A stretch of 64,000 bases of DNA from Bacteriovoracaceae bacterium (GTDB lineage Bacteria; Bdellovibrionota; Bacteriovoracia; Bacteriovoracales; Bacteriovoracaceae). Below the pieces are notes generated by a model that was not told the DNA's origin, searched no databases, and saw nothing but the letters and a program-made list of their open reading frames with translations. The stretch lies in the NCBI GenBank assembly GCA_036770305.1, contig DAIPJL010000001.1:1899-65898 (forward strand). Direction: 5' to 3'. Shown here in pieces: positions 15,876 through 64,000 of the stretch (positions are counted from its first letter, which is position 1; each line of letters starts with the position of its first letter). A program made the translations under genes and the position numbers.

Positions 15876-16007
15876 TCCCCCTTAAACCTAGTAGAATTCA
15901 AGTGAAAAAAGCTGAGACTCCTTAGAAGTTTTGGCCTCTATTTCAACGCATGGCCCAGCGACGGTAACCAGGGCAGATAACTTTTATTGTTTTTTATAGA
16001 GGTGATT

Positions 16008-16454: not shown

Positions 16455-16464
16455 GGATTAGACC

Positions 16465-27521: not shown

Positions 27522-27536
27522 GCTTTTCCTTGAATC

Positions 27537-28115: not shown

Positions 28116-28124
28116 GCCATTCTC

Positions 28125-38578: not shown

Positions 38579-38620
38579 GGCATCTAGGTTAGCTTTTCTC
38601 GATCGTACTAGCCAGCAACC

Positions 38621-46328: not shown

Positions 46329-46439
46329 GAGCAATACCAAGGTTCCAGCACACCTTTACGTAAGCGATGCAGCAAGGCTTTACTTCATCCGACGATTTCG
46401 GCACGCTTTTGAGTGACACTTCCATCCAAAGGATCACCC

Positions 46440-46827: not shown

Positions 46828-48171
46828 ATGAAGCGAGTTCTAATTATTGGTGCAGGACCAGCGGGCTTGAGTTGTGCATACAAACTCAGGAATTCGCCCT
46901 TCGAGGTGACGATTGTCGATGCCGAATCAACAGTCGGAGGCCTTTCGAAGACAATTTTCTATAAAGGATACCGCTTCGACATCGGGGGGCACCGCTTCCA
47001 CACCCGAGAGAAAGAAGTTTCAGATTTCTGGGCTGAGGTTTTCGGGGGACGCTTTCTTCGCCGTCAACGAAAATCTCGGATCGTCTTCAATGATAAAATG
47101 CTGGATTATCCGTTGAAGCTGCAAAGTCTCGTACGGAGTTTGAGTCCTTGGATGCTGCTGCGAATTTTTCTTTCCTACGCTCATGCAGTCCTGTTCAATC
47201 GGAAATCCGTGGGCTCGTTCCAAGACTGGGTTGTGAGTAGGTTCGGTCGCAAGCTCTTCGACTTATTCTTTCGAGATTATACGGAAAAAGTATGGGGAAT
47301 TCCGTGTGAGAGATTATCCGCAAGCTGGGCAGATGAAAGGATACAGAATCTTTCGGTGTGGAAGGCGGTTTGCTCGGTATTCATGCGGATGAAAAACGTT
47401 AGAACTCTCGTCGACGAGTTCGATTACCCTCCCCTCGGCCCCGGTCAGTTTTGGGATGAGGTGCATGGGAGAATTCAGGATGCAGGCTGCCGACTCCTTC
47501 TTGGGTGCGCCGTAGTGGGTATCGAAAAAACGAGTGAGGAAGCATGGGCTTGCCGATTTTCGGATGGCACCACCTCAAAGTTTAGCGCGGTGGTCAGTAC
47601 GATGCCTCTCGAACGCTTCGTTGAGATTCTGAAGCCTACCGTTTCATCGGAGGCTCTGTTCGCCGCACGCAGTCTTCGGCACCGATCTTTCGTGATGGTC
47701 ACACTGCTCTACCGGGATACGCCAAACCCTTTTCCTGACAATTGGATTTACGTGCAGAGTCCGAAGTACAAGCTTGGCCGCATACAGAATTTCAGAAACT
47801 GGTCACCACTTATGACACCGGGAGAGCAGGACCTTTCTCTTGGCCTTGAATACTTTTGTGACTTTGGTGATCAATTTTGGTCACTAGGAGATGAAGAACT
47901 CGCGGAGCTCGCGAAGAGCGAACTTCACAGTCTGGGATTGGCACCTGTTTGCTCACCTCACGATTATCATGTCGTGAGATCGCGCTACGCGTACCCAGTG
48001 TACGAGTGCGGCTACGAGAAACGACTGGGATTGATTCTAAGTGAACTTCGCAGTCACGACCGACTCTACTTTGCCGGACGGGGAGGCCTCTACCAGTATA
48101 ATAACCAGGACCACGCGATCCTTGCTGGTTTTCAAGCCGCTCGTCAGCTCATCAGCGAAACTGGAGGATAG
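46828..48171 (+). CDS. FAD/NAD(P)-binding oxidoreductase (amine-oxidase / UDP-galactopyranose-mutase-like fold)
   Basis: ATG at 46828 gives MKRVLIIGAGPAGLSCAYKL (GxGxxG) ...VDAESTVGGL...GGHRFH. The track start at 46774 overlaps the previous gene. Confidence 0.8.
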   Translation: MKRVLIIGAGPAGLSCAYKLRNSPFEVTIVDAESTVGGLSKTIFYKGYRFDIGGHRFHTREKEVSDFWAEVFGGRFLRRQRKSRIVFNDKMLDYPLKLQSLVRSLSPWMLLRIFLSYAHAVLFNRKSVGSFQDWVVSRFGRKLFDLFFRDYTEKVWGIPCERLSASWADERIQNLSVWKAVCSVFMRMKNVRTLVDEFDYPPLGPGQFWDEVHGRIQDAGCRLLLGCAVVGIEKTSEEAWACRFSDGTTSKFSAVVSTMPLERFVEILKPTVSSEALFAARSLRHRSFVMVTLLYRDTPNPFPDNWIYVQSPKYKLGRIQNFRNWSPLMTPGEQDLSLGLEYFCDFGDQFWSLGDEELAELAKSELHSLGLAPVCSPHDYHVVRSRYAYPVYECGYEKRLGLILSELRSHDRLYFAGRGGLYQYNNQDHAILAGFQAARQLISETGG

Positions 48172-48178
48172 GCCATAC

Positions 48179-50350
48179 CTATCGCTCTTCGGGGATCACG
48201 TACAGGGTGATCCCGCGAACCTGAGCCACTGGCCGTGCATCACGGTAGGGTTTGGGATGGCATCGATCTTCGGTGTAGACAAATTCGAGGAGCACAAAAG
48301 GTGGAGGTGTTTTGACGAGGTCTATCGATTCGACACACTCGAGCCCTTCGGGCTCAACGTAAGGCCTGAGACAGGCTCCGCAGCTGACTATCGGTAGCTC
48401 CAGGTCCTTCGCCTTTTGAGCGACAAGCCTCGACTCGAGTTCCCATGTTGCGATACCCTTCGCTTTCAAAACCATGTTGTTGTAAACCAGCAACCCGATG
48501 AAGAATGCAAAGATTGACTCGCGAAGCAGGCGCGAGTTTGCGCACGCGAGTAGTGAAATGACGATCGTTGTAACCGCGGGAGCCGCGAGGATGCTTAGGT
48601 GCCTGGCCCCAATGGTGTGTGGAGAGAGTACCCAGAGCGCAAACCATGACATGAAGCAAAGGACAGAAGATCCCAAGAGCTGAAGCAGGCGTCGGCTCCG
48701 CTCGTTAGTCAATGTTGTGACGAGGTAACCGCTGCCGATGAAAAATGCTGGTGTAAGGAAGGTCGTTCCGGTTGTGCCAAAAATGAATCGGATTTTGTTC
48801 AGGATGAGATGCTGTGCCGGAAGCGCTATCTGGCGAGTGAAGAAAAAATCTAGCTGATAGCGATAGGTGTACACCAGCATGCTGAGCGCAACGCTGACGC
48901 CTGCGAGCTTGCCCCAGCAGCGGCGAGACAGGAGGCGTGGCACTACGAGCGCCGCCCCCAGGCAGATTGCGTAAAGTGTTCCGATGGTGCTGGCCAGACT
49001 GAGTGCCAAGAGACTCCAGATGATCGTCCGACCACTCAACCAGGCGAAGAAGAAGTACGAGAATGCCGCCGTCGTCAGTGCGTAGGGGCGGAGGTTCTGT
49101 GAAAAAAACACTGTCGAATACAGCGCCGTGTGAAACAGCGCTCCCCACAGCGCGGATCGGCGATCATCGAGAAGATCGTAGATCCCTCGGTAGGTGAATA
49201 CGATAGACAGGCCCGTTGCAAGAAGAGATGGAATCCGAAGCCAAACTTCGCTGCCCCCGACGAAATGATAAACTGATTTCAAAACCAAGTACGGAATTGG
49301 CTGCTGGAGGTCTCGGGTGAGGCAGAACTTTACGAGGTCTAGGAGTGATTGTTGGTGCAGCTTTTCGAGCATGAGGAGTTCGTCGAATTGGAAGTTCGGC
49401 GTTGCCATAATGGCATTCGCTATTCCGCATGCGGTGATAGCTGTCGCGAGCCCGAGGAGGGGGCCGAATTCGAGGCGCATGATCGAGAGCCGGCGGACGC
49501 CCCAGCGGATGAAGTTTAGGAAAAGATCTATGAGGTGAAACGAATCACCCCGCGATAGCCCCCGGAAAAGTGCTCGAATCTGGGAAGAGGCGACACGCCA
49601 CGGACGCCGGTCTCTGCTGATTAGTTCCGTCGAAGAGGGCGCCCATTTCTGAAGGTATCTGGCTTTGCTCCAGCCCTCGGAGATCGCCCGAACCAGATAG
49701 CTGATCCATCCGCCGCGGCCATAGACAACCCATGAGTGACATCCCGGGAGCTGAGTGAGCGTGTGCCCGAGTTGCGCACACCTCTTTGAGAGATCAATGT
49801 CTTCGTGGCGCGAAAGATTATCGTCAAAGCCGCCCAACTTTTCTAGCACGGCTCGCCGGTAGATACAGCTTGCGGAGTTGATCATTGGAGCTTCGGGAGT
49901 CTGAACCGACAAATGGTTGAAGGTGCCCTGTGTTGTTGTGCGAGTTGCCCTAAACCGATACTTTGCCAATGAAGGTGGGATTCCTGTGGACACGGGATAG
50001 ATCCTTCCCTGCCCACCGGCCGCATTAGTGGTGAGAAGTGTCGTCACGGCACGGTTAATCCAGCCTAGTGAGATTTGGACATCCGCATCGACGAAAGCCA
50101 CGAACTCACCTCGGGCCGCGCGCCAGCCGGTGTTGCGTGCGAGGCTCCTGCCTTTCTTTGAAGTACTGAGAACAATGACCTCGGGATAGGCCTTAGCGAG
50201 TGCAGGAAGAGAATTATTCTTCCCATTGTCGACGATAATAACCTCAAACGAGAAGGAGCACTTTTGGCGCACGATGCTTCGAATGCATCGCTCAAGGGTG
50301 GCGTCAGCATCAAAGGCCGGAACGACGATGCTCACCAGGGGACTCGTCAT
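48179..50350 (-). CDS. Fusion protein: N-terminal GT2 glycosyltransferase plus C-terminal polytopic GT-C-like (ArnT/PMT-like) domain
   Basis: 723 aa. N-terminus VSIVVPAFDADATLERCIRSIVRQ...FVDADV (GT-A/DxD). From about residue 290 there are roughly 11 or more TM helices, with a first-loop FQFDELLMLE acidic motif. Confidence 0.75.
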   Translation of the reverse strand: MTSPLVSIVVPAFDADATLERCIRSIVRQKCSFSFEVIIVDNGKNNSLPALAKAYPEVIVLSTSKKGRSLARNTGWRAARGEFVAFVDADVQISLGWINRAVTTLLTTNAAGGQGRIYPVSTGIPPSLAKYRFRATRTTTQGTFNHLSVQTPEAPMINSASCIYRRAVLEKLGGFDDNLSRHEDIDLSKRCAQLGHTLTQLPGCHSWVVYGRGGWISYLVRAISEGWSKARYLQKWAPSSTELISRDRRPWRVASSQIRALFRGLSRGDSFHLIDLFLNFIRWGVRRLSIMRLEFGPLLGLATAITACGIANAIMATPNFQFDELLMLEKLHQQSLLDLVKFCLTRDLQQPIPYLVLKSVYHFVGGSEVWLRIPSLLATGLSIVFTYRGIYDLLDDRRSALWGALFHTALYSTVFFSQNLRPYALTTAAFSYFFFAWLSGRTIIWSLLALSLASTIGTLYAICLGAALVVPRLLSRRCWGKLAGVSVALSMLVYTYRYQLDFFFTRQIALPAQHLILNKIRFIFGTTGTTFLTPAFFIGSGYLVTTLTNERSRRLLQLLGSSVLCFMSWFALWVLSPHTIGARHLSILAAPAVTTIVISLLACANSRLLRESIFAFFIGLLVYNNMVLKAKGIATWELESRLVAQKAKDLELPIVSCGACLRPYVEPEGLECVESIDLVKTPPPFVLLEFVYTEDRCHPKPYRDARPVAQVRGITLYVIPEER

Positions 50351-51279
50351 ACAAGGATTTTCTTTCTAATTCCGAGAAGAATACCGAAAGCGATTCCGGC
50401 GCCCTGGCTAATTTGTGAGACGTATAGAAAGCTAGCAGCCTTTACAAGAGATAGGCGAGTACGCGAGTTAAGGAGTCGCAGGTTCCTCACCTGAGAGAGT
50501 CCCCACGCTGCCATGGACAGAGGGTAAAGTTTTGGGAAGCTTATGAGGGTTGCAAGCCCGAGCCAGCTTATTGCGATCCCGGCCAAGTCGCTACTCTTAG
50601 TGTGAAAGCGCTCTCCAAGAGATCCCTCCATCTGAAGAAGAGCATATTGTTGAGCGATACGGAAGTCGTACTCGGGCAGCCTGTGGAACGGTAAATGTTT
50701 GTTGTGGGTAAAGGTAGCACTGGGAACCAGTTCAATTGCGATTCCACGCTTTGAAAGGTCTAATCCCAGTCGTACATCCTCGAGTATGCGGTGTTCCGCC
50801 GGCCAAGATACCGGGAAGTTGAATGCACATAGGCTGCCATAGATGAAAGCTATGTTGGATGTGTGCTCGTGTCTGTGTCTAAGGAGGGCCATCTTGAGCC
50901 GCGTTGCCGTCTGTGAGCTATCGGAGCCACGTACTAGTCCCATTAGTGCCACCGGGGCTTTTGCCTCTGCGAGCCTCGTCCTAATTTCTCGAACGGTGCC
51001 AGGATCAAGCACGACGTCTGTGTCTACGAAAATCCTCCCTTGCCACTTTGCGAGTGTGCCACCGAGGTTACGAGCGGAAGCTGGTCCCATATTTTGTGGA
51101 TTTCGTATGAGTCGAATTTGTGGATTGTTTTGTGCAGGAAGCTGATCCTCGGAGGAGCCGTCGTCAGAAATTATCACTTCATCTAGAGGTTCTAGCTGAG
51201 GAAGAATCGATGCCAGAAGGCGGGAAGTATGTTGCCGGGCATTATAAGCCGGTATGATGATTGAAAGGGGAATCCCCAT
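50347..51279 (-). CDS. GT2-family glycosyltransferase
   Basis: 310 aa. LSIIIPAYNARQH...IISDDGSSED...FVDTDV. C-terminal TM helices. ATGA overlap with the downstream fusion gene. Confidence 0.85.
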   Translation of the reverse strand: MGIPLSIIIPAYNARQHTSRLLASILPQLEPLDEVIISDDGSSEDQLPAQNNPQIRLIRNPQNMGPASARNLGGTLAKWQGRIFVDTDVVLDPGTVREIRTRLAEAKAPVALMGLVRGSDSSQTATRLKMALLRHRHEHTSNIAFIYGSLCAFNFPVSWPAEHRILEDVRLGLDLSKRGIAIELVPSATFTHNKHLPFHRLPEYDFRIAQQYALLQMEGSLGERFHTKSSDLAGIAISWLGLATLISFPKLYPLSMAAWGLSQVRNLRLLNSRTRLSLVKAASFLYVSQISQGAGIAFGILLGIRKKILV

Positions 51280-51382
51280 GTAGTCACGGCCAGTGTATTG
51301 TTAATACTATGATTTTACCTGACTTAGTAAAAAAGGTCGATGTCGAAATTTCTCCGGATGTTAATCGGGATGTGTCATCACA

Positions 51383-52012
51383 ATGTTAAAGCTAGATGAC
51401 TTCGTCATCCGATTCGCAAGAGAGCTCCGCTTGCCTCTCCGAGAGATCCTGCGTATCCAGCAACTGGTTCAGCGTCACCCTCGCGTAAACTGGGACGACG
51501 CTCTAGGAGAATCGCAGCTGCGGAGTAAGCTAGAGCTCTGTCGGATGTTGCACGAAAATGACATAAGGCCGGATTTCATACAGATCCATGCGGGATGGAT
51601 CGGCTTGACAGCCTATCTCCTTCGTCTGGAGCCGAAGGCGCCGAAGAAAATCCAAATCATCGATCTGGATCCAGTCGCACTCGCCGCAGCACGGGACTTC
51701 TTAAGTGGGGTCGAAGTTTCTGTTCTTCAGGTAGACGTGAATACAGCGCCGATACCTGATGACGTCGATCTTGTGGTGAACACGTCCTGTGAGCACCTCC
51801 GGGATTTCTCGAGCTGGCTCGATCGGATTCCGCAAGGCGTACTATTTGCTTGTCAGTCGAATAATATGGTCGGGATCCATGCGCATATTAACTGCAGTCC
51901 TGATCTCATCCACTTTCAGGGATATTTCTCTAAGAGACTGATGATCGACACGTCTGTGGTGGATATGCCGGGAGGAAATGGCTGGCAGCGCTTCACCGTT
52001 TTGGGGCGCTAG
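51383..52012 (+). CDS. Class I SAM-dependent methyltransferase-like protein
   Basis: 209 aa. Motif I-like IHAGWIGLTAY, acidic beta2 end IIDLDP, DLVVNTSCEHL. Confidence 0.55.
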   Translation: MLKLDDFVIRFARELRLPLREILRIQQLVQRHPRVNWDDALGESQLRSKLELCRMLHENDIRPDFIQIHAGWIGLTAYLLRLEPKAPKKIQIIDLDPVALAAARDFLSGVEVSVLQVDVNTAPIPDDVDLVVNTSCEHLRDFSSWLDRIPQGVLFACQSNNMVGIHAHINCSPDLIHFQGYFSKRLMIDTSVVDMPGGNGWQRFTVLGR

Positions 52013-53526: not shown

Positions 53527-53664
53527 GGCTGGGCGCTATGTGATCTCGGTGATGTTTTCAACAGCAGGATTTTTAGCTGGTCCTCCGAGTGTCACCAGCT
53601 AGGACATGCTACATTAACCTGTGGTTGAATTAGAAGATAACTTTTGTGTCTAGAAAGGTGTTGC

Positions 53665-55068: not shown

Positions 55069-55073
55069 CTCGT

Positions 55074-56273
55074 ATGACTGAAGCCTCATCTCTCGACATC
55101 GTCATTCCCACAGGCCACCGTCGGAAATCTCTCGCGAGGCTATTGTCTTCGATTCGGAGACAGGAGAAACCTGGCACATGGAGAGTCGTCGTAGTCGCCG
55201 ACGGAACTTCGCTCGACGCGGAGGCCCTGAGGATTATCGAGGTTGAGCCGGCGATCGAACTCGTGCGGATCTCTCGCGGTGGTGTGAACCGTGCGCGGAA
55301 TGCGGGGCTTAGGAGGTGTCGATCAGACTGGGTCTTGATGCTCGATGACGACGTCGTGCTGCCGGAGGGATACCTCGGAGCGCTTCTGGATCGCATCGGG
55401 CAGGAGACGCGGGTGGTGGCGGTTGGCGGCATCTACCTACCCAAGGAGGGTGCCGTGTCGGCGGCGACTGCCTATAATTATATCGCGAGCAGTTGGGTCA
55501 GGAGTGCGACGCGCTTAGACGGGACAACTTTTGCGCTGCTCGGTGGAAATGCTTGCTACCATCGAAGACGGCTTGGGGAGCGGCTAAGGTTTGCGGAGTG
55601 GATACATTTCGGTGGGGCAGAGACAGAGTTGAATCTGCGTCTCATTGAGCAGGGGCTAGAGCTGGGCTTCGATCCGGCGCTTCACGTGTACCACGACTGT
55701 GAGGTTGGAATACTGGGACTTGTTCGGAAGGGGTTCGCGCAGGCCCGAGGACGATCCTCTCTTGAGGGTCGGATTTCTTCGGCCGTGCTTGCTCTTACCG
55801 ACATCGCGAGAGTAGAAGATCAGCGCCCTGGAGTCCGTGCGTATTTCTTGGGATACGACCTTTTCAATTTCTGTCGTGCCCATAATCTTCTGAGGCATTC
55901 GGACGGCTACGAACTCCGCTTTCACCAGGCGATCATCTGGGGTGGGGAGCAAATTTTTAGGTCGTCTGGCATCGAACGAATTTGGGGCCTAGGCGTATCT
56001 CTCATGCGCGCGATGTTAAATTCCCTCGTTCGGTTAAGGGACTGGGTTCGGTGGCAGGTGCCACCGCAGTGTCGTGCCCTTGTGACTTGGGTTCGGTGGC
56101 AGGTACCACCAAAGTACCGCGCCTTAGTGATATGGGTTCGGTGGAAGACTTTACCCATAGTGGTCATCGTTGTGATATCGGTGCCATGTGCCTTTTTGCA
56201 GATACCGGTGTTTCTCCCGAGAGAGCGACTTTCGGATCTTCGAACGCAGATCCTCAGAAAAATACTAGGATAA
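55074..56273 (+). CDS. GT2-family glycosyltransferase with repeat-containing hydrophobic C-terminus
   Basis: 399 aa. LDIVIPTGHRRKSL...VVVADG...MLDDDV. The C-terminal segment contains the 45-bp tandem repeat and a TM helix. Confidence 0.8.
   Translation: MTEASSLDIVIPTGHRRKSLARLLSSIRRQEKPGTWRVVVVADGTSLDAEALRIIEVEPAIELVRISRGGVNRARNAGLRRCRSDWVLMLDDDVVLPEGYLGALLDRIGQETRVVAVGGIYLPKEGAVSAATAYNYIASSWVRSATRLDGTTFALLGGNACYHRRRLGERLRFAEWIHFGGAETELNLRLIEQGLELGFDPALHVYHDCEVGILGLVRKGFAQARGRSSLEGRISSAVLALTDIARVEDQRPGVRAYFLGYDLFNFCRAHNLLRHSDGYELRFHQAIIWGGEQIFRSSGIERIWGLGVSLMRAMLNSLVRLRDWVRWQVPPQCRALVTWVRWQVPPKYRALVIWVRWKTLPIVVIVVISVPCAFLQIPVFLPRERLSDLRTQILRKILG
56043..56150 (+). repeat. 45-bp in-frame tandem repeat (2 full copies plus a partial third)
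   Basis: TGGGTTCGGTGG... recurs at 56043, 56088 and 56133. Encodes WVRWQVPPQCRALVT / WVRWQVPPKYRALVI / WVRWKT... Confidence 0.9.
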
Positions 56274-56308
56274 ATTTGATTTTATAATTTAGTATCTACG
56301 TTCGAGAT

Positions 56309-57235: not shown

Positions 57236-57838
57236 GTGAGCCTTAGAAGAGTTCAACTCATAAGAGATGGTGTTCAGAAGTTATGTGATCCAGTCGTTTT
57301 GCGTAATTTCTACGACACCCTTGCGGAGATTCACTGCTCTCGTGATTCAAAGAGGTCAAACTATACCCAAGATGCTCTGGACTTAACGGGGCATGCTCTC
57401 TTTGATCTCGCCGTGGATGAGAACAAAAACATAGGGACGTTCTGCGGTGTTTATAATGGTGGAAGGTACCCTGCAGGGGTCTATCGATTGCTGAATCGAG
57501 TGTATGTGACACCACATTTTCGTAATCGCCACGGATTGCACATGGCACTTGCAACAAAGTACTTGTTGCCGGCGCAATATGAAGAAATCTGTGATCGATC
57601 AGATTTAGTATTCGTTTCGCGGGAAGGAGCCCTGGGCAGAGAGTCTCTTGGGCGCTGGCTCAGGGTGCACTGGGGGCATTCCGCATGGCGCGTTCATCCT
57701 CGCTACGTTCAAGTGGTGCCCGGGGTTAGAAACAAAAGAACTTTTCAAGCTATCGCTTATCAGTGCATCAGAAAAACTGACTGGTTTTTTGAAGAGTTAG
57801 ATGATGCCGAATGGCAAATGCTTCCAGAGGGTGTTTGA
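57236..57838 (+). CDS. Hypothetical protein, possibly GNAT-fold acyltransferase
   Basis: 200 aa. GTG start immediately after the previous TGA. LNRVYVTPHFRNRHGLHMALATKYL resembles GNAT motif A. Weak call. Confidence 0.35.
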   Translation: MSLRRVQLIRDGVQKLCDPVVLRNFYDTLAEIHCSRDSKRSNYTQDALDLTGHALFDLAVDENKNIGTFCGVYNGGRYPAGVYRLLNRVYVTPHFRNRHGLHMALATKYLLPAQYEEICDRSDLVFVSREGALGRESLGRWLRVHWGHSAWRVHPRYVQVVPGVRNKRTFQAIAYQCIRKTDWFFEELDDAEWQMLPEGV

Positions 57839-59169
57839 TGAGTCATGTCTCGCGCATCGGTATCACGCTGTGGTTTGACGATGAATCTCGGGATCTCTTG
57901 TCCATCAGCCTAGTCTCTATTCTTATGCAGGTTCAGCGAAAGAGAGTACCGCTCAAAATTGTGAAAGGTTTCCTATCGGCATTTCAGATCCAGCATCAAA
58001 GTGAGTACACACTCTTGATCCGAGCTGGTCATGTTTTTAAATCGAACAGATGGTACGATGAGCTTGTTCAGTTTACAGACCAGAGAGTACCTGCGATCGG
58101 CCACATAATCGCAAGGCCAGGTGAAGCACTATCTCTTCATCCGCAGTTGATGTTATTTATGACGCACCATTTGACCTCGATTGCTGCAGCGGTCATCAGT
58201 TGCAAGTCATACCGGCTTTTCGAGAGAAGTGATAATAATATCCACGATGATTACACGCCGCTCTGGGTTCGATCGACACAAGCCCCTCAGGAAAGAGCTG
58301 ACTCAAAGGTATGCGAGTCAATTGCAGCGGGAGCACTTGAGTTAAATCGTGAAATTCTTAACTGGCCATGGTCATACCGTAGACTGAAGCATGACATTTC
58401 TACCGATACGCCGTTACATCGTGCGGAGCATGTAAATAGGTATATCTATGAGATCGAGCGCCAGAGAAGTCTTCTCTATCCCTTTAATAACGAACCCCAT
58501 GTTGAGCTAGAGCTTCCGACCCTTGCTCACGTCATGGGCGTTGCGAGTGGACTAAAGCTCAATGCCCTGACGCACAGGTCAATCAATGATAAAACGAGAT
58601 TCACCTTTTTTGATATCAGCAGGCTGAGTCTGGAGTTCCGAGGTCGGATTAATAATGACTGGGATGGAAAGGATTACGAATCCTATGCTTCCGGAATAGC
58701 GAGTGGCTATGATGCTTCTCTAGTATATATCTCAGCCTTTCGAAGTTCGAGACAAGTCGAATGGCTAGCGTCACCCACTTTCGTAGAACATTGGAGGTTA
58801 TTCAAAGAGCTTCCAAAGCAATACATCCGGCACGATATTGTAGGCCACGAGAGAAAGAAGATTTTAGCTCACCTGAAGAAGGAGCCGTCGTTTATTTGGT
58901 TTAGCAATTCCTTTACATCCCAGAGTGCAGTTTTCATGAAGAGCTTCGGCCAGCTTTGCGAGCTTTATCTCAGATTCTCAAGTGAGGTAAGTGCCCTCAA
59001 CGAGGACTCGTTACTTTTTGGCTACTCACCTCTCGGCGAAGCGATGTCGAAGCCCATGACACCAAGGGAAATGATCGAGAGTTTTTCTTTTGACCATGCT
59101 TTGTTCATACGGTCAGTGTGCGTCGGCGGCACGCCGAAAGAGCTTATATTCGAGGGAACCGACTCTTGA
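57838..59169 (+). CDS. Hypothetical protein (443 aa), unknown function
   Basis: ATG at 57838 overlaps the previous stop (TGATG). No recognised motif. A possible Rossmann-like segment (HVMGVASGLK...FTFFDIS). The 3' end overlaps convergent pepM by 26 nt. Confidence 0.6.
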   Translation: MSHVSRIGITLWFDDESRDLLSISLVSILMQVQRKRVPLKIVKGFLSAFQIQHQSEYTLLIRAGHVFKSNRWYDELVQFTDQRVPAIGHIIARPGEALSLHPQLMLFMTHHLTSIAAAVISCKSYRLFERSDNNIHDDYTPLWVRSTQAPQERADSKVCESIAAGALELNREILNWPWSYRRLKHDISTDTPLHRAEHVNRYIYEIERQRSLLYPFNNEPHVELELPTLAHVMGVASGLKLNALTHRSINDKTRFTFFDISRLSLEFRGRINNDWDGKDYESYASGIASGYDASLVYISAFRSSRQVEWLASPTFVEHWRLFKELPKQYIRHDIVGHERKKILAHLKKEPSFIWFSNSFTSQSAVFMKSFGQLCELYLRFSSEVSALNEDSLLFGYSPLGEAMSKPMTPREMIESFSFDHALFIRSVCVGGTPKELIFEGTDS

Positions 59170-59974
59170 GGGATGAAATTTCTTCGTAGTCCATGAACTG
59201 AAAAAGCTCCTTCATAGACATTAGCCCCTCTTCAGGTGCACTAGAGTACTTTCTTATGTGTTCCGCGACTTCTAGTTGGGCCCTGATAGCAGCGCGCATT
59301 CCTTGATTGGCCCAAATTACTCCGCGTATTGCGTGCTCGAGTAGTAGATTAGATGGAGGCAGTGGATAGGTCGTAGGACAAACGATCACTGGGATTTCAC
59401 CTGAAATCGAATGGCAAACTTCTTGGATGTGGTCGAAACAGTCACGGTTGGAATGAATGAAAATGGCATCGGCGCCTACCTCGTGGGCTGCGCGAGCACG
59501 CCGATAGACGGCATCCGCACTCTCTCCACGAATTAGTCCCTCGAGTCGTGCAACGATGAGCATCCTAGAGCGCAGGGCGAGGGATGCTTGAATCTTCTCA
59601 ATAAAATCGCCTTCCGTTGCACCAATTTGCGCACCGGTCTGAAGACTGTTGTTTTTTACACCAGCCTTATCCTCGATGACGATCCCAAGTGCACCAATTT
59701 TTTCAAGGCGCTTAATAAGATAAGCGAGCTTTTCGATGGAGTTAAATCCATTGGTCCCGTCGACTAAGAGCTTCAGATTCGAGGTCGAGCTAAGTTGTAA
59801 GCACGTGTCGAGGATGTGCTCCGGTCCGAGTTCCTCACTGTCGCGAATTCCGTGACTGGTCGCTACACACAGAGATGAAACCCAGCCAAAATCGAAGCCA
59901 GTCTGGGAAGCAACGCGTGCAGAAATTGGATCGTGAACTTCATAGAAGTGAACGATTTCGTTCGGCTTTAGCAT
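59144..59974 (-). CDS. pepM: Phosphoenolpyruvate mutase (isocitrate lyase/PEP mutase superfamily)
   Basis: 276 aa. Aligns end to end, by eye, with my recollection of PEP mutases (ISARVA..GF...VDGTNG...). Carries the discriminating motif IEDKAGVKNNS (EDK-X5-NS, nt 59645-59674), plus IVARLE, GADAIFIHS and VIWAN. Confidence 0.85.
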   Translation of the reverse strand: MLKPNEIVHFYEVHDPISARVASQTGFDFGWVSSLCVATSHGIRDSEELGPEHILDTCLQLSSTSNLKLLVDGTNGFNSIEKLAYLIKRLEKIGALGIVIEDKAGVKNNSLQTGAQIGATEGDFIEKIQASLALRSRMLIVARLEGLIRGESADAVYRRARAAHEVGADAIFIHSNRDCFDHIQEVCHSISGEIPVIVCPTTYPLPPSNLLLEHAIRGVIWANQGMRAAIRAQLEVAEHIRKYSSAPEEGLMSMKELFQFMDYEEISSLKSRFPRI

Positions 59975-60768
59975 TGTTGCTCGTATTGGGTATGCGGCAG
60001 CGCATTTGATCTGGTGCGGATAAGCCGAACTAGAAGCATCGCGGGGTCAAACTCATGTCGATGGCACGCAAAGTTGGCCCGTGAGGGAAAAGCATGGTGA
60101 TTGTTGTGCAAAGATTGGCCCCAGGTAAACCATGTGAGCCACCGTATGTTTCGTGAATTGTCACCAGTTTGCTGAGGCCGAAGGCCTGGTTTGTCCATGT
60201 GACAGAAAAGATTAATGATGTTTTCTTGATGGATGCTGTAGAGCATAGGCAGGGCGATTAAATTAAGTCCGATGTCCAGTGGAATAAGAACGGAGGCGGC
60301 AAGAGTGAGGTGAATCAAGGTTTCGTAATTTCGGTGTAGCCATTTCTGCCAAGGATCTCTCGCGAGATTTTTTGCGTGTTGGAGACTGAATTTACGATGA
60401 TCAAATCTTATCTGCCAACCGAGGTAAGAGGACCACTTCCCGTTCACAGGAGAATGAATGTCCAGAGAGGTGTCAGAATGTATGTGATGAAGGCGATGTA
60501 GTGCTACCCAGAAAATTGGCGATCCCTGTCCTCCCAGTGCTCCAAGGAGGGAGATGATTTTCTCAATCCGAAGGCTGGTTTTAAAAGATTTGTGAGAGAG
60601 ATATCTGTGAAGCCCGACGGCTACACCTAAGCCACTTATGAGAGTCCAGCCTATCAAAATGAGCAAGATGCTAGAAAGCTGAGGAGCACTGAGCAATCGG
60701 AATAGTGCGTAGAGCCCCACGAGGTGAATAGGGATAATGACACGAGTAAAGTGCGGAGATAGTTTCAT
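59968..60768 (-). CDS. Membrane fatty-acid desaturase family protein (short form)
   Basis: 266 aa. Three His boxes HRYLSH, HRLHH and HNNHH in the acyl-CoA desaturase arrangement. Four hydrophobic segments. Confidence 0.85.
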   Translation of the reverse strand: MKLSPHFTRVIIPIHLVGLYALFRLLSAPQLSSILLILIGWTLISGLGVAVGLHRYLSHKSFKTSLRIEKIISLLGALGGQGSPIFWVALHRLHHIHSDTSLDIHSPVNGKWSSYLGWQIRFDHRKFSLQHAKNLARDPWQKWLHRNYETLIHLTLAASVLIPLDIGLNLIALPMLYSIHQENIINLFCHMDKPGLRPQQTGDNSRNIRWLTWFTWGQSLHNNHHAFPSRANFACHRHEFDPAMLLVRLIRTRSNALPHTQYEQQC

Positions 60769-61481
60769 GAGAGTTGTTTTTTTAACAAGAAGACTTCTTC
60801 GTACATCTCTTCAGAGATTTTTGAGCTAATGGATGATGAGAGAATTTCCGTTCCAGGCAAAATAAGATCACTTAGCTGCATCATGTTGTTTGCCCCGTTC
60901 CATGGGTATCCCATAACGAGCATGGTTAGGCCCTTTTTCGTTGCGGCATAGCCGTGGGGCATACTCCCGTTAAGTACAAATGCATCATGGTGCTCGTTGA
61001 TAAACAACTTTTCACCTGATTTGTTTAAAAAAAATATACCAGACGTATCACCGTCGAGCACAAGTCGTAGCTTTAATTCAAGCTTTGAGGTGTTAGAAGG
61101 GGCGATATCCACATGAACTGGGATGGATGTATTTGGTGCCACATGTAAGATACAACACCGTGGTAGCGGTTTCATCCAGCTAAAGAAGCATGACTCAAGG
61201 ATTCTGCAAGCTTCGGGCATTTGAACCGCAGCTTCGGTCCAAGGCAATAATGCTGAAGATGTCACAAGACCGGATACCATGAGGTTCGAAGGTTTTTTTT
61301 CGGTTTCGTAATTTTTTTGGGGCCATAGGCGAAGGATGTGAGAGGCACGAAACTCGTCAGGATACCAGCCACTCAGATCATCGAGGAGTGGACGAAGCTC
61401 CGAGTTAATCTTCAGAACGTCTTCAGGACCAATTCCAAGCTTCGAAAGAGAGATTCCGGCAAAGGCAATATCCTTCGTCAT
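60765..61481 (-). CDS. Cupin-fold Asp/Asn beta-hydroxylase (AspH/LpxO)-like oxygenase, paralogue C
   Basis: 238 aa. ILHVAPNTSIPVHVD (HxD) ... LKLRLVL ... GSMPHGY (distal His). ATGA overlaps on both sides. Confidence 0.6.
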   Translation of the reverse strand: MTKDIAFAGISLSKLGIGPEDVLKINSELRPLLDDLSGWYPDEFRASHILRLWPQKNYETEKKPSNLMVSGLVTSSALLPWTEAAVQMPEACRILESCFFSWMKPLPRCCILHVAPNTSIPVHVDIAPSNTSKLELKLRLVLDGDTSGIFFLNKSGEKLFINEHHDAFVLNGSMPHGYAATKKGLTMLVMGYPWNGANNMMQLSDLILPGTEILSSSISSKISEEMYEEVFLLKKQLS

Positions 61482-62308
61482 ACCTTATGAGCCTCGTTCC
61501 ATGTGCTAGAGTTTAACTCAGTATTTGCGATGATTCGCTGGATCTCTGACGGAAGTATGGTTTTACCAGTCAAAGCCTCAATCACCTGCTGAACCGCACT
61601 TTGGGGGAAGTGTGTTCCTCCTGCCTTCACGATAGCAGCAAGGTAGTGGTTAGGGTCTACTGAGCTTTCCGTCAATGTGTCTTTGAAGTCGCCGTAGGCG
61701 ATACGCCCATTGCGAAGATACGAATTAGTTTTGAAGAAACTCAGTCGGCGATAACCAAGGGCGGAGAGTCTAAGATTAAAATCAATGAAGTCTACCGTAG
61801 ACTTTTCGCTAAGTGAGAGGTCTTTGTGCTTTTCGAGTGTAAGTAAGTCCTCGCCTAGATACTCCATGACGAGAGTTTGTGTGACGTCATCTTTCTCAAG
61901 CAGGAGAGGGCCGTGGAAACCGTTAAGTGCACTGAGAATCTCTGCTTCCTTCCGATAGAAGAATCTCAAGACGTCGGGCGATGATTGTGTCAGAGGAGTT
62001 CCGCCGACTGTGATCCCGTGAGGGTGGAAGATTTTTACGACTTTTCTTTCGGCAGGATTAATCAAGATGCTGGCACTCGACCCTATCGAGGCTTTCAATG
62101 TCTTGGTTCCGTCGCGGAGAATAGGCTTGCTGTGGGGGTGTCTGAAGACCTTGAAGCCTCTTCTTTCCCAGCTCGCAATAAGATCGCTAAACTGGGCTTC
62201 CTCTAAACTCGTGTGTGAGGAAAGATTCCTAGTCGCCGAGATTGTTGAAATTCCCACAAGGCCAAATCCTTTTATCAATGTGGTCGACAGGAAGTCTCGT
62301 CTGAGCAT
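61478..62308 (-). CDS. Protein-kinase-like-fold protein with twin-arginine-type N-terminus
   Basis: 276 aa. AAGGAG RBS 6 nt upstream. MLRRDFLSTTLIKGFGLVGISTISA (RRxFL plus h-region). Kinase-like strands KVVKIF, EAEILSAL, LVMEYLG, YGDFKD, but no HxD catalytic loop. Confidence 0.4.
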   Translation of the reverse strand: MLRRDFLSTTLIKGFGLVGISTISATRNLSSHTSLEEAQFSDLIASWERRGFKVFRHPHSKPILRDGTKTLKASIGSSASILINPAERKVVKIFHPHGITVGGTPLTQSSPDVLRFFYRKEAEILSALNGFHGPLLLEKDDVTQTLVMEYLGEDLLTLEKHKDLSLSEKSTVDFIDFNLRLSALGYRRLSFFKTNSYLRNGRIAYGDFKDTLTESSVDPNHYLAAIVKAGGTHFPQSAVQQVIEALTGKTILPSEIQRIIANTELNSSTWNEAHKV

Positions 62309-62523
62309 TTCGGGCTCCTTGTTGATTCTGATAAACTAAGGTCATTTTACTATACAACGGGTCAGTCACTTTTCTTAAAAGAAGTGTGGTTGTGTTTATA
62401 ATCACTTGGCTAAGAGAGAAATTGAAATTCAAAAAATGTCTGAGCGAGCCTCTAGTTATATTAAATGCTTATGGTGGCAACGCTCGTGGCTATATGGAGG
62501 TAAGAAAATTCTAGTTTCTAGGC

Positions 62524-63168
62524 TTAAATCGACAGGTCGCAGAACCTGTCTGGATTTGCAATAAAATGCTCGTGATTTATGTCTGCAACGATGTGATCCC
62601 TGAATTCGGTTCCATTGTTTAAAACTTCGTGGAGAAGGTCTATTCGAACTAAGTAGCCGGCTCCCGAAGCGGGGAGGTGATATTTGACATTACCGTAGAG
62701 CATCACTGCGTCCGGATTTGTGTTGATGGGAATAATAAGTCGATATCTTGCGCCGTTCTTTCCACTTGCGTCTTTGTGCGGAGGGCTACCCCTCGAACCC
62801 GGCCAAATCCGCAAAACTCGAACACGAGAAGGCTCCAGGCAGGCATCTTGAAGTATGCGTAGTAGTTCTTGGAAGCCGCCGACGCAAGCTGACGTCTTGA
62901 TTGTTTCAGGTCCTCGATTCGCGAGAAAGTCTCGCATTTCTTGAAGCTTTTCAGGGGAAAGGGTGGAGTTGAAAACAACCTGACCGCTGTAGAACCCGTC
63001 AGCGACCTCTCCGGTGCTACTCGTGAGAGCCCAGCCGCCGTATCCTGGATGTTTCAAAACGATAGGGAAATTTTCAGTCACATACTTGAGGTCCTTGCGG
63101 AGTTGCAAGATATCAAACCGGAGTTTGAGTTTTAAAATCGGATTATCATTTAACATCACATGAACCAA
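62524..63168 (-). CDS. Cupin-fold AspH/LpxO-like oxygenase, paralogue B
   Basis: 214 aa. VLRIWPGSRGSPPHKD (HxD), RYRLIIPINT, LLHEVLNNGTEFRDHIVAD. An alternative ATG at 63156 gives a TGATG junction with the upstream gene. Confidence 0.7.
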   Translation of the reverse strand: MVHVMLNDNPILKLKLRFDILQLRKDLKYVTENFPIVLKHPGYGGWALTSSTGEVADGFYSGQVVFNSTLSPEKLQEMRDFLANRGPETIKTSACVGGFQELLRILQDACLEPSRVRVLRIWPGSRGSPPHKDASGKNGARYRLIIPINTNPDAVMLYGNVKYHLPASGAGYLVRIDLLHEVLNNGTEFRDHIVADINHEHFIANPDRFCDLSI

Positions 63169-63842
63169 TCTAAGAAGTTTTCAGAAGGCCTTCCATGAAC
63201 AATAAGATGCACTCTGTCTTGGTCGCTGAAATTAACTACTGCGTGTTCGTGTCGGGTATTGAGAGAGAAGGCGACACCGTTCTCGAATGGAACGTATCCA
63301 AAATCCTTAAACTTAAAAAACGATCCCGCCGGATTATCGAGGGCGATGTTGAGCCAGCAGAGGCGGCCCTCATTCGGTTTCGACTTCCCATCCCGGTGTG
63401 GTCGTGTAAACCCCTTTGGGCCAAGAACCATGAAGCGAACTCTCTCGAGCCTCTCGTACGGGAGTGACTCTATGAATTTTCGTGTTAAGGGACAAAGAGT
63501 TGAGCAGTTTGTCCAAGCATATGGGACTTCGGATTCGTCTGCCCATGCCCCGTAGCGAACGAAGTTATCTACCTGCTGATTACCTAGTCCGTGTAGCGCG
63601 ACCGCTTTCCATTTGTAGCTAACAGAGTGAGGGTAGGTGTTATGGTTGCTGACCAGGAGTGAGCGAATGCCTTGGTATTCTGCGAGAATATCGGTCACAG
63701 GAATTTGTTTTGAAAACTTTAGAGCGACTAGTGCCGATGATTGGAGTTGTTCTAGCGAGAGGCTACTAGCACTTGTGGCTTTGAGATAAGCGGGAGACTG
63801 ACAGTCACTAAAAAACGAGCTAACTTCTTCTGGGAAAAGCAT
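63156..63842 (-). CDS. Cupin-fold AspH/LpxO-like oxygenase, paralogue A
   Basis: FMVLGPKGFTRPHRD (HxD), CWLNIAL, RHEHAVVNFSDQDRVHLIV. Start at ATG 63842 (MLFPEEV...) or TTG 63878. Confidence 0.65.
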   Translation of the reverse strand: MLFPEEVSSFFSDCQSPAYLKATSASSLSLEQLQSSALVALKFSKQIPVTDILAEYQGIRSLLVSNHNTYPHSVSYKWKAVALHGLGNQQVDNFVRYGAWADESEVPYAWTNCSTLCPLTRKFIESLPYERLERVRFMVLGPKGFTRPHRDGKSKPNEGRLCWLNIALDNPAGSFFKFKDFGYVPFENGVAFSLNTRHEHAVVNFSDQDRVHLIVHGRPSENFLDWFM

Positions 63843-63902
63843 GATACAAAGATGTATTTCAGCGAGACGATATCGCAAGAGGAAAATGAGGGGAATCGCG
63901 TA

Positions 63903-64000
63903 ATGAATTTAATTAAATCGACCTCGGGTCTGTTTAAAAATGATCTTTATCAAATTCCCTTAATCGAACTCGATTTTGATTCAATGAGCCTTTGCATCTC
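63903..64000 (+). CDS. 5' end of an unidentified CDS running out of the window
   Basis: ATG at 63903, open to the window end (MNLIKSTSGLFKNDLYQIPLIELDFDSMSLCI...). Divergent from the cupin genes. Too short to classify. Confidence 0.3.
   Translation, partial: MNLIKSTSGLFKNDLYQIPLIELDFDSMSLCI

Follow-up and report, generated by a model that had tools for sequence, protein, structure and literature searches.

How did a block of foreign-looking composition come to lie behind ubiB in a GC-rich predatory member of the Halobacteriovorax/Bacteriovorax family (Bdellovibrionota; genome labelled G000), and what do its genes do? The analysed window comprises 64,000 nucleotides of one contig, and all positions given below refer to it. 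The genome has a GC content of 61.6% (5-kb windows: mean 0.616, SD 0.030, n = 811), and the 5-kb windows of the island vary between 0.47 and 0.545. GC3 falls from 0.75–0.91 in the core genes (recG, ubiB and neighbours) to 0.45–0.64 in all 17 large genes and the small secreted-protein ORF of the island, and is back up at 0.84 in the GNAT acetyltransferase gene on the far side, so that the abrupt composition step noticed in the original prediction is both real and large. Tetranucleotide usage follows the same trend: between 56.3 and 64.8 kb the distance to the genome is greater than that of all 202 genome blocks (9-kb scale), and between 46.3 and 56.3 kb it is exceeded by about 7 of the 202.

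The extent of the island was derived from synteny. In seven genomes of the same genus (G003, G005, G006, G007, G008, G009 and G010) ubiB abuts the GNAT gene, the two stop codons overlapping in the junction alignment, and the same abutment was found in other genera (Halobacteriovorax marinus SJ, G016 and apparently G018). Aligned with this empty junction, the island covers 46329–64784 (18,456 bp), bounded by the stop codons of ubiB (ABC1 atypical kinase; 44619–46328, plus strand; PF03109, 219 bits; orthologues within the genus 67–78% identical) and of the GNAT gene (64785–65804, minus strand; PF13527). The insert starts right after the TAA stop of ubiB (left junction, 46329–46412) and not, as formerly placed, at the start of the FAD oxidoreductase gene (46828); with the left border at 46328/46329, the small secreted-protein gene therefore belongs to the insert. 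The right border does lie past the window, as anticipated, 784 bp beyond its end and still within the contig, and it is razor-sharp in composition against the GNAT gene. Flagellin genes, missed in the first reading, lie just past this border: the first starts at ~65960, beyond the GNAT gene, and ~1 kb separates the end of the island from the first member of the flagellin tandem seen in relatives.

Three relatives carry other cargo at the ubiB–GNAT junction, namely 3.3 kb with ApbE, FMN-binding and porin-like genes (G004), a gene for a 489-aa membrane protein (G002) and 6.4 kb encoding giant prepilin-type proteins (G011), which marks the junction as an insertion hotspot. As ubiB lies directly beside the GNAT–flagellin genes in same-genus and same-family genomes, the synteny comparison proposed for an acquired block came out in its favour, and we are confident that the island is a horizontally acquired insert at this hotspot. 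Related modules elsewhere in the family and phylum might alternatively suggest that the island is ancestral, was lost from the relatives and differs in composition for functional reasons. Since the empty overlapping-stop junction is common to seven genus members and at least two (apparently three) other genera, this would need many identical precise losses; moreover, the family homologues are 26–44% identical and situated at other loci, and since a homologous cluster in G099, of the same family, has the composition of its own genome, a resident block in G000 should have tracked the rise of the host to GC3 ~0.85. We consider ancestry extremely improbable, and we judge no better the chance of an assembly or binning artefact, in which foreign DNA was mis-joined into the MAG contig. 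The metagenome-type assembly of 290 contigs with 1.9% estimated contamination would allow for such an error, and synteny logic therefore has to carry the island junctions alone. However, host-like sequence lies on both sides of the island within one contig, and each join coincides exactly with the stop codon of a flanking gene, the two genes being neighbours in relatives and both reading frames staying intact. That chimeric joins should have arisen twice, independently, at precisely these positions is very unlikely.

The composition of the acquired insert is itself not uniform. The left half (46.3–56.1 kb) has a GC content of 0.51–0.59 and the right half (56.1–64.8 kb) of 0.44–0.49, and the sole clear internal step in the 200-bp GC profile lies at ~56.1 kb, in the tail of the 399-aa GT2 gene at a tandem repeat. 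The three sub-blocks that had been described are thus not supported; the split between 46.8–51.3 kb (gene GC 0.51, 0.55, 0.51 and 0.53) and 52–55 kb (0.58, 0.53 and 0.57) is not clean. Transcription direction flips repeatedly, six times and not five once the FkbM methyltransferase gene (63852–64745) is counted. It is probable that the island was acquired in two or more steps, with a left half that looks older or partly ameliorated and a right half that looks newer; set beside this, the G099 cluster, which holds homologues of both halves, is compositionally uniform.

The left half begins with a genome-specific signal-peptide protein of 134 aa (46413–46817, plus; intermediate GC of 0.59), for which neither a Pfam/NCBIfam match nor a homologue in 30 relatives was found. 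It is followed by an FAD-dependent oxidoreductase of the PRK07208/amine-oxidase family (46828–48171, plus; NF005548, 468 bits), whose top database matches are 44–46% identical (G099 homologue: 42.5–44%, varying with the search) and whose close relatives are situated in glycosyltransferase-rich loci. FAD oxidoreductases of this family are common in polysaccharide loci. A 723-aa protein that joins a GT2 to a polytopic GT-C-like membrane domain (48179–50350, minus; PF00535, 93 bits) owes its GT-C assignment to one weak match, NF052499 mannosyltransferase over aa 301–462 (E = 5e-5); its two halves are encoded separately, by neighbouring genes, in G099. Its pairing with the next GT2 (310 aa, hydrophobic C-terminal tail; 50347–51279, minus; PF00535, 70 bits) is kept in many family genomes. 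A putative SAM methyltransferase (209 aa; 51383–52012, plus; Methyltransf_25, E = 1.4e-4, below cut-off) has homologues beside the GT2 pair in G099 and beside rSAM clusters elsewhere. The third GT2 (505 aa; 52009–53526, minus; PF00535, 77 bits, aa 226–405) bears a 220-aa N-terminal domain with a CX3CX2C motif and no family match, and the fourth (399 aa; 55074–56273, plus; PF00535, 74.5 bits) ends in three 45-bp tandem repeats in the 3' tail of its gene (56043–56147; D2/D3). Between them lies a radical SAM protein with an N-terminal twitch domain (53665–55068, plus; NF033640, 284 bits against a cut-off of 170), whose top matches (59–63% identity) stand in multi-rSAM clusters and which has a 40%-identical paralogue on host contig C39.

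The lowest-GC half opens with the gene of a PP-loop (adenine-nucleotide alpha-hydrolase) ATPase (56309–57235, plus; weak Asn_synthase, NAD_synthase and QueC matches), and about half of its proteins have no assignable family. A 200-aa protein (57236–57838, plus) has no family match, and the 443-aa protein behind it (57838–59169, plus) belongs to an uncharacterised two-domain family with 275 distant relatives of at most 30% identity among 1.84e9 representatives. PF05118 was found in 7 of 30 aligned members of this family, an Asp/Arg-hydroxylase domain being fused to the long relatives, and the family is present in 9 of 300 Bdellovibrionota genomes; single-sequence folding of the 443-aa protein yielded no usable model (pLDDT 31). 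On the minus strand follow a divergent PEP mutase-like protein (59144–59974; PF13714, 143 bits; EDK-X5-NS motif, IEDKAGVKNNS), a membrane His-box desaturase/hydroxylase (266 aa; 59968–60768; PF00487, 62 bits), a 238-aa weak cupin-like relative of the Asp/Arg hydroxylases (60765–61481; BLASTP to the 240-aa cupin, E = 0.097) and a 276-aa protein with an RR-type N-terminus (61478–62308) and no family or PDB match. The last three have homologues of 34%, 35% and 29% identity, respectively, in a module of G416, a genome of another Bdellovibrionota family. An Asp/Arg-hydroxylase-type cupin (214 aa; 62524–63168, minus; PF05118, E = 0.024) has a homologue in G099 (E = 7e-16) that matches PF05118, and an Asp/Asn beta-hydroxylase-family cupin (240 aa; 63156–63878, minus; PF05118, 40.5 bits) has homologues of 27–39% identity beside or fused with a 443-aa-family protein in five other genomes. 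The FkbM-family methyltransferase gene (63852–64745, plus, of which 63852–64000 is in the window; TIGR01444, 78 bits) completes the insert.

These assignments bear out the envelope/glycan chemistry that had been read from the sequence. From the gene list behind that reading, the four GT2 domains, the N-twitch radical SAM protein, the PepM-like protein with its motif, the His-box desaturase and one Asp/Arg-hydroxylase cupin hold, and the GT-C domain, the PP-loop protein, the 209-aa methyltransferase, two further cupins and a second 'rSAM-type' domain are weakly supported. Judged by protein families and gene neighbourhoods, a role in building or tailoring a cell-envelope glycan or glycolipid seems to us somewhat more plausible than its opposite. 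In the left half, the four GT2 enzymes, one of them fused to the GT-C-type membrane transferase, are accompanied by the FAD oxidoreductase, the putative methyltransferase and the N-twitch radical SAM protein; such a GT2 and GT-C pattern would be expected for sugar transfer via a polyprenyl-phosphate carrier to a periplasmic acceptor. The right half would provide tailoring by three Asp/Arg-hydroxylase-type cupins, the membrane di-iron desaturase/hydroxylase, the PP-loop ATPase, the FkbM methyltransferase and the 443-aa protein, from a family in which fusions with cupins of this type are frequent, and the divergent PEP-mutase-like enzyme may add a C–P (phosphonate) group. A GT2 is likewise combined with a polytopic GT-C-type transferase in GtrABC O-antigen glucosylation and ArnC/ArnT lipid A modification; here the two would be fused in the 723-aa protein, on the single weak match named above, and the hydrophobic-tailed GT2 comes in addition, whereas no GtrA or ArnE/F-type flippase was seen and many tailoring genes are extra. 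As the island holds no initiating phosphoglycosyltransferase, flippase, polymerase or exporter, no polysaccharide can be made by it alone.

The PepM-like protein raises the alternative of a biosynthetic gene cluster, formed by the right half or by the entire island, that yields a lipid or small molecule with a phosphonate group and does not serve glycan tailoring. PepM would make phosphonopyruvate, and a non-canonical route would process it with the help of the cupins, the desaturase-like enzyme and the PP-loop ATPase. The motif fits, the nearest homologues are true PepM genes beside Ppd, and 12 of 67 family genomes encode a PepM homologue. The Asp/Arg-hydroxylase family also includes the lipid A acyl hydroxylase LpxO. 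Furthermore, within the host's family, Bacteriovorax stolpii contains sphingophosphonolipids with a 1-hydroxy-2-aminoethylphosphonate head group (PMC8942020). However, neither Ppd nor a transaminase, reductase, FrbC-type or other phosphonopyruvate-consuming partner was found in the island or host genome, the TIGR02320 score of 189 bits stays under the equivalog cut-off of 319.55 (top homologues at most 38% identical, 30–35% within the phylum), and the modules of G416 and G099, which have cupins, a 443-aa-family protein and a desaturase/hydroxylase in common, have no nearby PepM. This route is therefore unlikely.

Slightly less likely still is a flagellin glycosylation island, in which the flagellins encoded just to the right would be the substrates of the transferases and tailoring enzymes. 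Such islands in Pseudomonas (a-type P. aeruginosa), Campylobacter (pse/maf) and Aeromonas are typically low-GC, variable transferase/methyltransferase clusters adjacent to flagellin genes, as is the case here, and FkbM methyltransferases and PP-loop proteins occur in some of them. Unlike these, the present island has no nonulosonic-acid or deoxysugar pathway genes and no Maf, FlmG or Fgt-type flagellin transferase; genome-wide, no Maf-type transferase (PF01973) and only a 24-bit NeuB-like match were found. The G099 and G416 modules have no nearby flagellin gene, and the periplasm-facing GT-C-type domain suggests a periplasmic acceptor in contrast to the cytoplasmic glycosylation of flagellin. 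Since what occupies this junction in other relatives is unrelated (ApbE/porin genes, pilin-like proteins), adjacency to flagellin is a property of the hotspot and not of the cargo. A flagellin-glycosylation role is thus unsupported. An acquired hotspot insert with an envelope-glycan or glycolipid function is, as a joint reading, likely, and the island is a real, fairly ordinary accessory surface-modification island.

The origin of this insert was traced by its homologues, which are all distant (best 63%, 46% and 38% identity among 5.8e9 proteins). G099 holds a collinear set of FAD oxidoreductase, GT2, GT-C, GT2 and methyltransferase genes with homologues of the radical SAM protein and the 399-aa GT2; cupins, a protein related to that of 443 aa and a membrane fatty-acid hydroxylase are encoded in the same cluster. 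G416 carries a module like the right half. GT2-pair and FAD-oxidoreductase modules were found in 44 of 200 family and 45 of 300 phylum genomes, and both halves correspond to accessory modules that are patchy across other Bdellovibrionota. The proposed assembly from several sources is half right: there is one clear step, and the halves are not without connection, their homologues standing together in G099 and the second recurring in G416. The word 'foreign' likewise applies in part. The insert is acquired; the host, however, is itself the GC outlier of its genus and family (relatives have 34–59% GC at the ubiB–GNAT locus), the island has roughly the usual composition of this low-GC family, and the FAD-oxidoreductase tree, a single tree with a long branch, prefers an origin in the Bdellovibrionota (constraining the G000 protein to the Bdellovibrionota clade improves on the free quick tree by 15.3 lnL; p-AU 0.787). 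The donor was most likely another, lower-GC, unsampled member of the same phylum, a placement that, every homologue being distant, draws on likeness of gene neighbourhood and on one long-branch tree that does not reject it.

As reported for the left border, no integrase, transposase, tRNA or flanking repeat is present, and this extends to the whole enlarged island. No DNA match was found in plasmids and phages, no DNA-level relative in 100 family genomes and no PHROG match. Because such mobility signs are absent, we infer that the incoming DNA was most likely fixed by recombination at the ubiB–GNAT junction, without mobility machinery of its own. The only candidate sign of homologous exchange lies in ubiB, where GC3 drops from ~0.9 to ~0.7 over the last third (final 240 codons), a segment whose phylogenetic affinity is unchanged relative to the rest of the gene. 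A decayed integrative element, prophage remnant or composite transposon that lost its mobility genes could be read from the TAA triplet at both junctions (TACTAA|GAG ... ATT|TAAATCG) as a 3-bp target duplication, and distant homologues of two island genes do occur on phage contigs. Both flanking genes, however, require TAA as their stop codon, IS ends and inverted or direct repeats are lacking as well, and the intergenic gaps (35–215 bp) are too short for hidden gene remnants, which leaves such an element very doubtful.

In comparison with classical genomic islands (Hacker and Kaper), the size above 10 kb, the atypical GC, codon usage and tetranucleotides, the absence from close relatives, the accessory surface functions and the mosaic composition agree, whereas adjacent tRNA, integrase, transposase and flanking direct repeats are missing and the site lies between two convergent protein-gene stop codons. 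Hypervariable surface-polysaccharide loci (O-antigen/capsule; galF–gnd, cps), which are exchanged by recombination, are likewise low-GC, rich in glycosyltransferases and free of mobility genes, and occupy a fixed site between conserved genes with cargo that varies among relatives; unlike them, the present island is not self-sufficient (no initiating transferase, Wzx/Wzy or ABC exporter), the site is empty in most relatives with no alternative allele, and their cargo is not always glycan-related. Within the same bacterial family, regions of difference between Halobacteriovorax marinus BE01 and SJ were found by the same kind of detection, codon usage and synteny (PMC5760749). At least one of them (region B) has transposase and integrase genes, unlike the present island, which also differs in content and site; one of the regions contains genes for membrane synthesis that have been attributed to another Halobacteriovorax lineage (PMC5760749).

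The AT-richer stretch that follows ubiB (44619..46328, +) is a real, well-delimited and horizontally acquired accessory island, rich in glycosyltransferases and devoid of mobility genes, which is inserted at a hotspot. The window corresponds to bases 1899-65898 of the 68.4-kb contig C29 of the host genome (G000; 3.08 Mb, 290 contigs, 97.6% complete), whose overall GC content is 61.6% (5-kb windows: mean 0.616, SD 0.030, n = 811). With values of 0.47-0.545 the 5-kb windows of the island are among the lowest of these 811. At 1-kb resolution the GC content varies between 0.60 and 0.66 before 46 kb, between 0.50 and 0.58 at 47-56 kb and between 0.46 and 0.50 at 56-64 kb, and it is back at 0.60 about 1 kb past the window end, as seen when the contig was read onward. 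Individual island genes exhibit GC contents of 0.44-0.59. Furthermore, GC3 amounts to 0.91 for recG, 0.83 for ubiB and 0.75-0.79 for their neighbours, to 0.45-0.64 in every island gene and to 0.84 in the first gene past the island. The tetranucleotide distance to the genome is larger for the right half of the island (56.1-64.8 kb) than for all 202 genome blocks of 9 kb, and that of the left half (46.3-56.1 kb) is exceeded by about 7 of the 202. The abrupt composition step of the original prediction was confirmed by the GC, GC3 and tetranucleotide profiles alike, and in all three the island deviates from its genome in the manner of a classical genomic island.

For comparison, the GC content at the ubiB locus of same-genus relatives is 40% (G004), 44-49%, 53.5% (G006) and 59% (G008), next to ~62% in G000, and 34-39% in other genera of the family; the genome-wide value of Halobacteriovorax marinus is 36.7% (PMC5760749). 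G000, and apparently also G008, stand out by their high GC content from a predator family that is otherwise low in GC. Since the host is the compositional odd one out and its relatives range from 34 to 59% at this locus, the 44-59% of the island lie near the group norm.

The borders were derived from related genomes. UbiB was found in 28 of 31 of them, and the DNA downstream of it was compared. In seven same-genus genomes (G003, G005, G006, G007, G008, G009 and G010) ubiB is followed directly by an opposite-strand GNAT acetyltransferase gene and then by two tandem flagellin genes. The stop codons of ubiB and the GNAT gene overlap in six of these seven empty sites (...AAATACTAAATCGAATC...), and ~45 bp lie between the two genes in G008. 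The empty site also occurs in other genera, namely in G013 (Halobacteriovorax marinus SJ), G016 and apparently G018, so that the absence from the same site in close relatives that marks a classical genomic island extends over seven genomes of the genus and two to three from other genera. In G000 the left junction reads GTACTAA followed, across the border, by GAGCAATACC, and the right junction TGAATTATT followed by TAAATCGAGTC. Judged from these junctions and the empty sites, the insert comprises positions 46329-64784, i.e. 18,456 bp. Consequently, the left border, which had been placed at 46828, has to be moved to 46329, with the small signal-peptide gene in between belonging to the insert, and the right border indeed lies beyond the window, at 64784. 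The small signal-peptide gene has no homologue in 30 relatives. At the right end the last island gene, an FkbM-family methyltransferase gene (63852-64745), is followed by the GNAT gene (64785-65804, minus strand) and by a flagellin gene, which starts ~1.2 kb right of the border and continues into the contig end.

The right border is razor-sharp, the GNAT gene retaining a GC3 of 0.94-0.96 up to its stop codon, and the left one is blurred by the intermediate GC content of the small signal-peptide gene. Adjoining the island, GC3 of ubiB itself declines from ~0.9 to ~0.7 across its last 240 codons (45600-46328); ubiB of G008, the other high-GC congener, is without such a fall. A search for a recombination tract in ubiB revealed a constant amino-acid affinity to relatives along the gene and synonymous sites saturated to a degree that makes a donor signal unreadable. 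The drop could go back to recombination long ago or to a local bias in codon use.

Neither tRNA nor tmRNA genes were detected with ARAGORN across the window and an 8.4-kb stretch that includes the right flank, nor was any Rfam family, and the island is thus not adjacent to a tRNA or tmRNA gene as classical genomic islands are. Pfam and NCBIfam searches of the 18 island ORFs, ten of which were also compared with PHROGs and PADLOC, unveiled no integrase, transposase or phage-type family, so that the mobility genes of classical genomic islands are missing, too; the intergenic gaps span 35-215 bp. Neither direct nor inverted repeats flank the island, and no border-spanning repeat pair rose above chance. 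The two junctions share only TAA, which both flanking genes require as stop codon, and flanking direct repeats (att sites) of the classical kind are lacking. Megablast of the island gave no match in 72,556 plasmids or 50,697 phages. The absence of integrase, transposase, tRNA and flanking repeat noted earlier from the sequence was hence borne out, for tRNA also in the right flank. A reading as defence island was rejected, as the PADLOC matches were confined to faint, unspecific similarities to the QueC and viperin superfamilies.

The junction between ubiB and the GNAT gene is a hotspot, at which other relatives carry different cargo. In the same genus, G004 (L016:14905-18184) holds 3.3 kb encoding ApbE, an FMN-binding protein, a porin-like protein and a small membrane protein, and G002 (L019:1991-3405) a 489-aa polytopic membrane protein without family match. 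In G011 of another genus (L108:5634-12067) the junction harbors 6.4 kb with four or five large secreted proteins (295-898 aa), which exhibit prepilin-type N-terminal motifs and poly-threonine tracts. The incoming island DNA would have been fixed by recombination at this hotspot, and its uptake may be tied to predation as a way of life; PMC5760749 describes islands that were ascribed to other lineages of Halobacteriovorax. The case is unusually clear-cut, the insert being bordered by a stop codon on either side and the site being empty in many relatives. It shows an obligate bacterial predator lineage remodelling its surface chemistry by uptake of accessory modules at a fixed flagellin-side junction, without dedicated mobility machinery.

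The left half encodes, in this order, a PRK07208-type FAD-dependent oxidoreductase (46828..48171; 468 bits), a 723-aa GT2 fused to a polytopic, weakly GT-C-like domain (one weak NCBIfam match, E = 5e-5), a 310-aa GT2, a small putative methyltransferase, a 505-aa GT2 with a Cys-rich N-terminal domain (no family assigned), an N-twitch radical SAM enzyme (NF033640, 284 bits) and a 399-aa GT2 (55074..56273, +). The right half comprises a PP-loop ATPase with weak matches only, two proteins of 200 and 443 aa (the latter at 57838..59169, +) without assigned family, an opposite-strand run of six genes (cupin, cupin, 276-aa protein, cupin-like 238-aa protein, His-box membrane desaturase and PEP-mutase-like protein) and, as final gene, the FkbM methyltransferase. 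Transcription flips repeatedly, as had been claimed, six times instead of five. PDB sequence searches with four island orphans gave no match, and the single-sequence AlphaFold model of the 443-aa orphan reached a pLDDT of 31.

Of the three sub-blocks proposed originally a single convincing internal step is left, at ~56.1 kb. The genes of the left part, with GC contents of 0.51, 0.55, 0.51, 0.53, 0.58, 0.53 and 0.57, do not separate into two groups, and every gene past 56.1 kb lies at 0.44-0.49. The step lies in the 3' tail of the 399-aa GT2 gene, the fourth of its kind, and coincides there with a tandem repeat of 3 x 45 bp (56043-56147), which gives the protein WVRWQVPP...RALV units in its C-terminal tail.

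No close relative of the island was found in the collections searched, and 100 family genomes compared at the DNA level exhibited only short echoes of the radical SAM and FAD oxidoreductase genes. The best protein identities are 38% for the PEP-mutase-like protein (PepM), 46% for the FAD oxidoreductase and 63% for the radical SAM enzyme, and the contigs with the best radical SAM matches hold multi-radical-SAM clusters, not the island. The complete genome G099 of the same family contains one compositionally uniform cluster (L040:1-12997; GC 0.35-0.42) with homologues, arranged and oriented as in the island, of the FAD oxidoreductase (42-44%), the first GT2 (40%) with a separate GT-C part (~29%), a second GT2 (26%) and the methyltransferase (30%). 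It also encodes homologues of the radical SAM enzyme (35%) and the fourth GT2 (31%) and, additionally, two to three Asp/Arg-hydroxylase cupins, a membrane fatty-acid hydroxylase and a relative of the 443-aa orphan. In G416, from another Bdellovibrionota family, a cluster (L075:3886-16061) contains homologues of the desaturase (34%), the 238-aa protein (35%), the 276-aa protein (29%) and two cupins, one of them fused to the 443-aa family and the other 35% identical, and adjoins a B12-radical SAM enzyme, 2OG oxygenases and a carbamoyltransferase. In the module recurring in G416 and G099, cupins adjoin or are fused with a ~440-aa two-domain protein with conserved RSxxNxHDDYTP, VAAGxK, WDGxDY and WxSN motifs, and a membrane di-iron enzyme is included as well, next to 2OG oxygenases, a B12-radical SAM enzyme and a carbamoyltransferase. 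Among 1.84 billion representative proteins 275 distant relatives of the 443-aa orphan were found, and in 7 of the 30 that were aligned an Asp/Arg-hydroxylase domain is fused to the protein. The GT2 pair is present in 44 of 200 family genomes and the FAD oxidoreductase, with a patchy distribution even inside single genera, in 45 of 300 phylum genomes.

The G099 and G416 clusters indicate that both island halves are phylum-typical accessory modules, which are able to occur together. Moreover, the uniform composition of the G099 cluster argues that the 56.1-kb step in G000 reflects history and not function, two successive arrivals being more likely than two donors; the left part would then have been exposed longer to the strong GC pressure of the host. 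A quick maximum-likelihood tree of the FAD oxidoreductase resolved the Bdellovibrionota as a supported clade with the G000 copy just outside on a very long branch. Constraining this copy into the clade improved the likelihood (+15.3 lnL, p-AU 0.787), and an origin within the phylum is therefore favoured, though not proven. The earlier description of the stretch as foreign and assembled from several sources stands in part: the insert was acquired, but its halves are modules of a type found in the phylum and their composition is close to that of the group.

With respect to function, the left half would move sugars via a lipid carrier onto a periplasmic envelope acceptor, and the right half would hydroxylate, methylate or amidate its product or a lipid, possibly also adding a phosphonate group. 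Pfam and NCBIfam searches of the island unveiled no Bac_transf, Glycos_transf_4, Polysacc_synt, Wzy or ABC family, and hence no initiating transferase, flippase, polymerase or exporter; a self-sufficient O-antigen or capsule locus would carry an initiating phosphoglycosyltransferase together with Wzx/Wzy or an ABC exporter. Compared with Gtr/Arn-type systems, the GT2 domains are clear, the GT-C half is supported by the one weak match (E = 5e-5) and by a separate 450-aa membrane-protein homologue in G099, and no flippase was found. In its adjacency to flagellin structural genes (~1.2 kb), of which relatives carry two in tandem at this place, the island resembles flagellin glycosylation islands, but a role in glycosylating flagellin is unlikely. 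A dedicated Maf, FlmG or Fgt-type transferase is missing, PF01973 giving no match genome-wide and the island GT2 proteins carrying neither TPR nor Maf domains, and the island contains no sugar-donor pathway of the pseudaminic/legionaminic acid or viosamine-type deoxysugar kind, with only a 24-bit NeuB-like match on another G000 contig. The GT-C-type domain also counts against flagellin as acceptor, as do the unrelated cargo at the same junction in relatives and the homologous modules in G099 and G416, near which no flagellin genes were found.

A second N-twitch radical SAM gene of G000 (C39:12307-13620), 40% identical to the island copy, shows host-like composition (locus GC 0.58). The closest cellular relatives of the island enzyme (59-63%) lie within radical SAM gene arrays with three to six members, and a 49%-identical homologue is encoded by the jumbo Ralstonia phage RsoM2USA.

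The PEP-mutase-like protein carries the EDK-X5-NS motif as IEDKAGVKNNS and matches PF13714 with 143 bits; as a putative member of the TIGR02320 equivalog it scores 189 bits, the cut-off being 319.55 bits. Its best homologues are at most 38% identical and adjoin phosphonopyruvate decarboxylase (Ppd), one of them on a phage-like contig. Ppd is absent from the 97.6%-complete G000, in which TIGR03297 yielded only a 25-bit fragment genome-wide, and none of Ppd, FrbC-type synthase, transaminase and reductase is encoded in the island; the coupled phosphonopyruvate-consuming enzyme that defines a phosphonate cluster is missing. PepM homologues were found in 12 of 67 family genomes, 30-35% identical to the island copy and at other genomic positions, and the family is known for sphingophosphonolipids (PMC8942020). 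Conceivably, the right half (56.3-64.8 kb) represents a new PEP-to-phosphonate route yielding a hydroxylated envelope lipid or glycolipid and captured by the predator lineage at the flagellin-side hotspot, which we regard as unlikely. Thereby, the divergent PepM would work without any known phosphonopyruvate-consuming partner, and its partners would come from the conserved, uncharacterised Bdellovibrionota module, which comprises the Asp/Arg-hydroxylase cupins, the 443-aa family with its frequent fusions to them, a membrane di-iron enzyme and a secreted protein that is kinase-like. The island in itself is an ordinary kind of feature; the more interesting points are the partnerless PepM-like gene and the cupin/443-aa module, and as the cargo combines this gene with several families without known function, it offers a good handle for assigning the functions of the recurrent Bdellovibrionota module.

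The 43-kb Logan contig L025 (SRR26786762) is phage-like, with capsid and adaptor genes, and carries a PepM homologue together with genes for a TPP-enzyme fragment, an Fe-alcohol dehydrogenase, a cytidylyltransferase, NeuB and GT2 proteins. Together these genes resemble a set for phosphonate/glycan decoration carried by a phage.

Further drops in GC content within the window were rejected as islands: they correspond to rplM/rpsI (15987-16866; 15-17 kb), to a run of small pilin-like genes, one with a prepilin N-methylation motif (26928-28724; 27-29 kb), and to pgpA (38087-38839; 38 kb). Elsewhere in G000, stretches on contigs C74 (1-6000), C249, C91, C143 (10-18 kb) and C226 (1-6 kb) exhibit GC contents of 0.42-0.55 and atypical tetranucleotide use and are probably further acquired regions.
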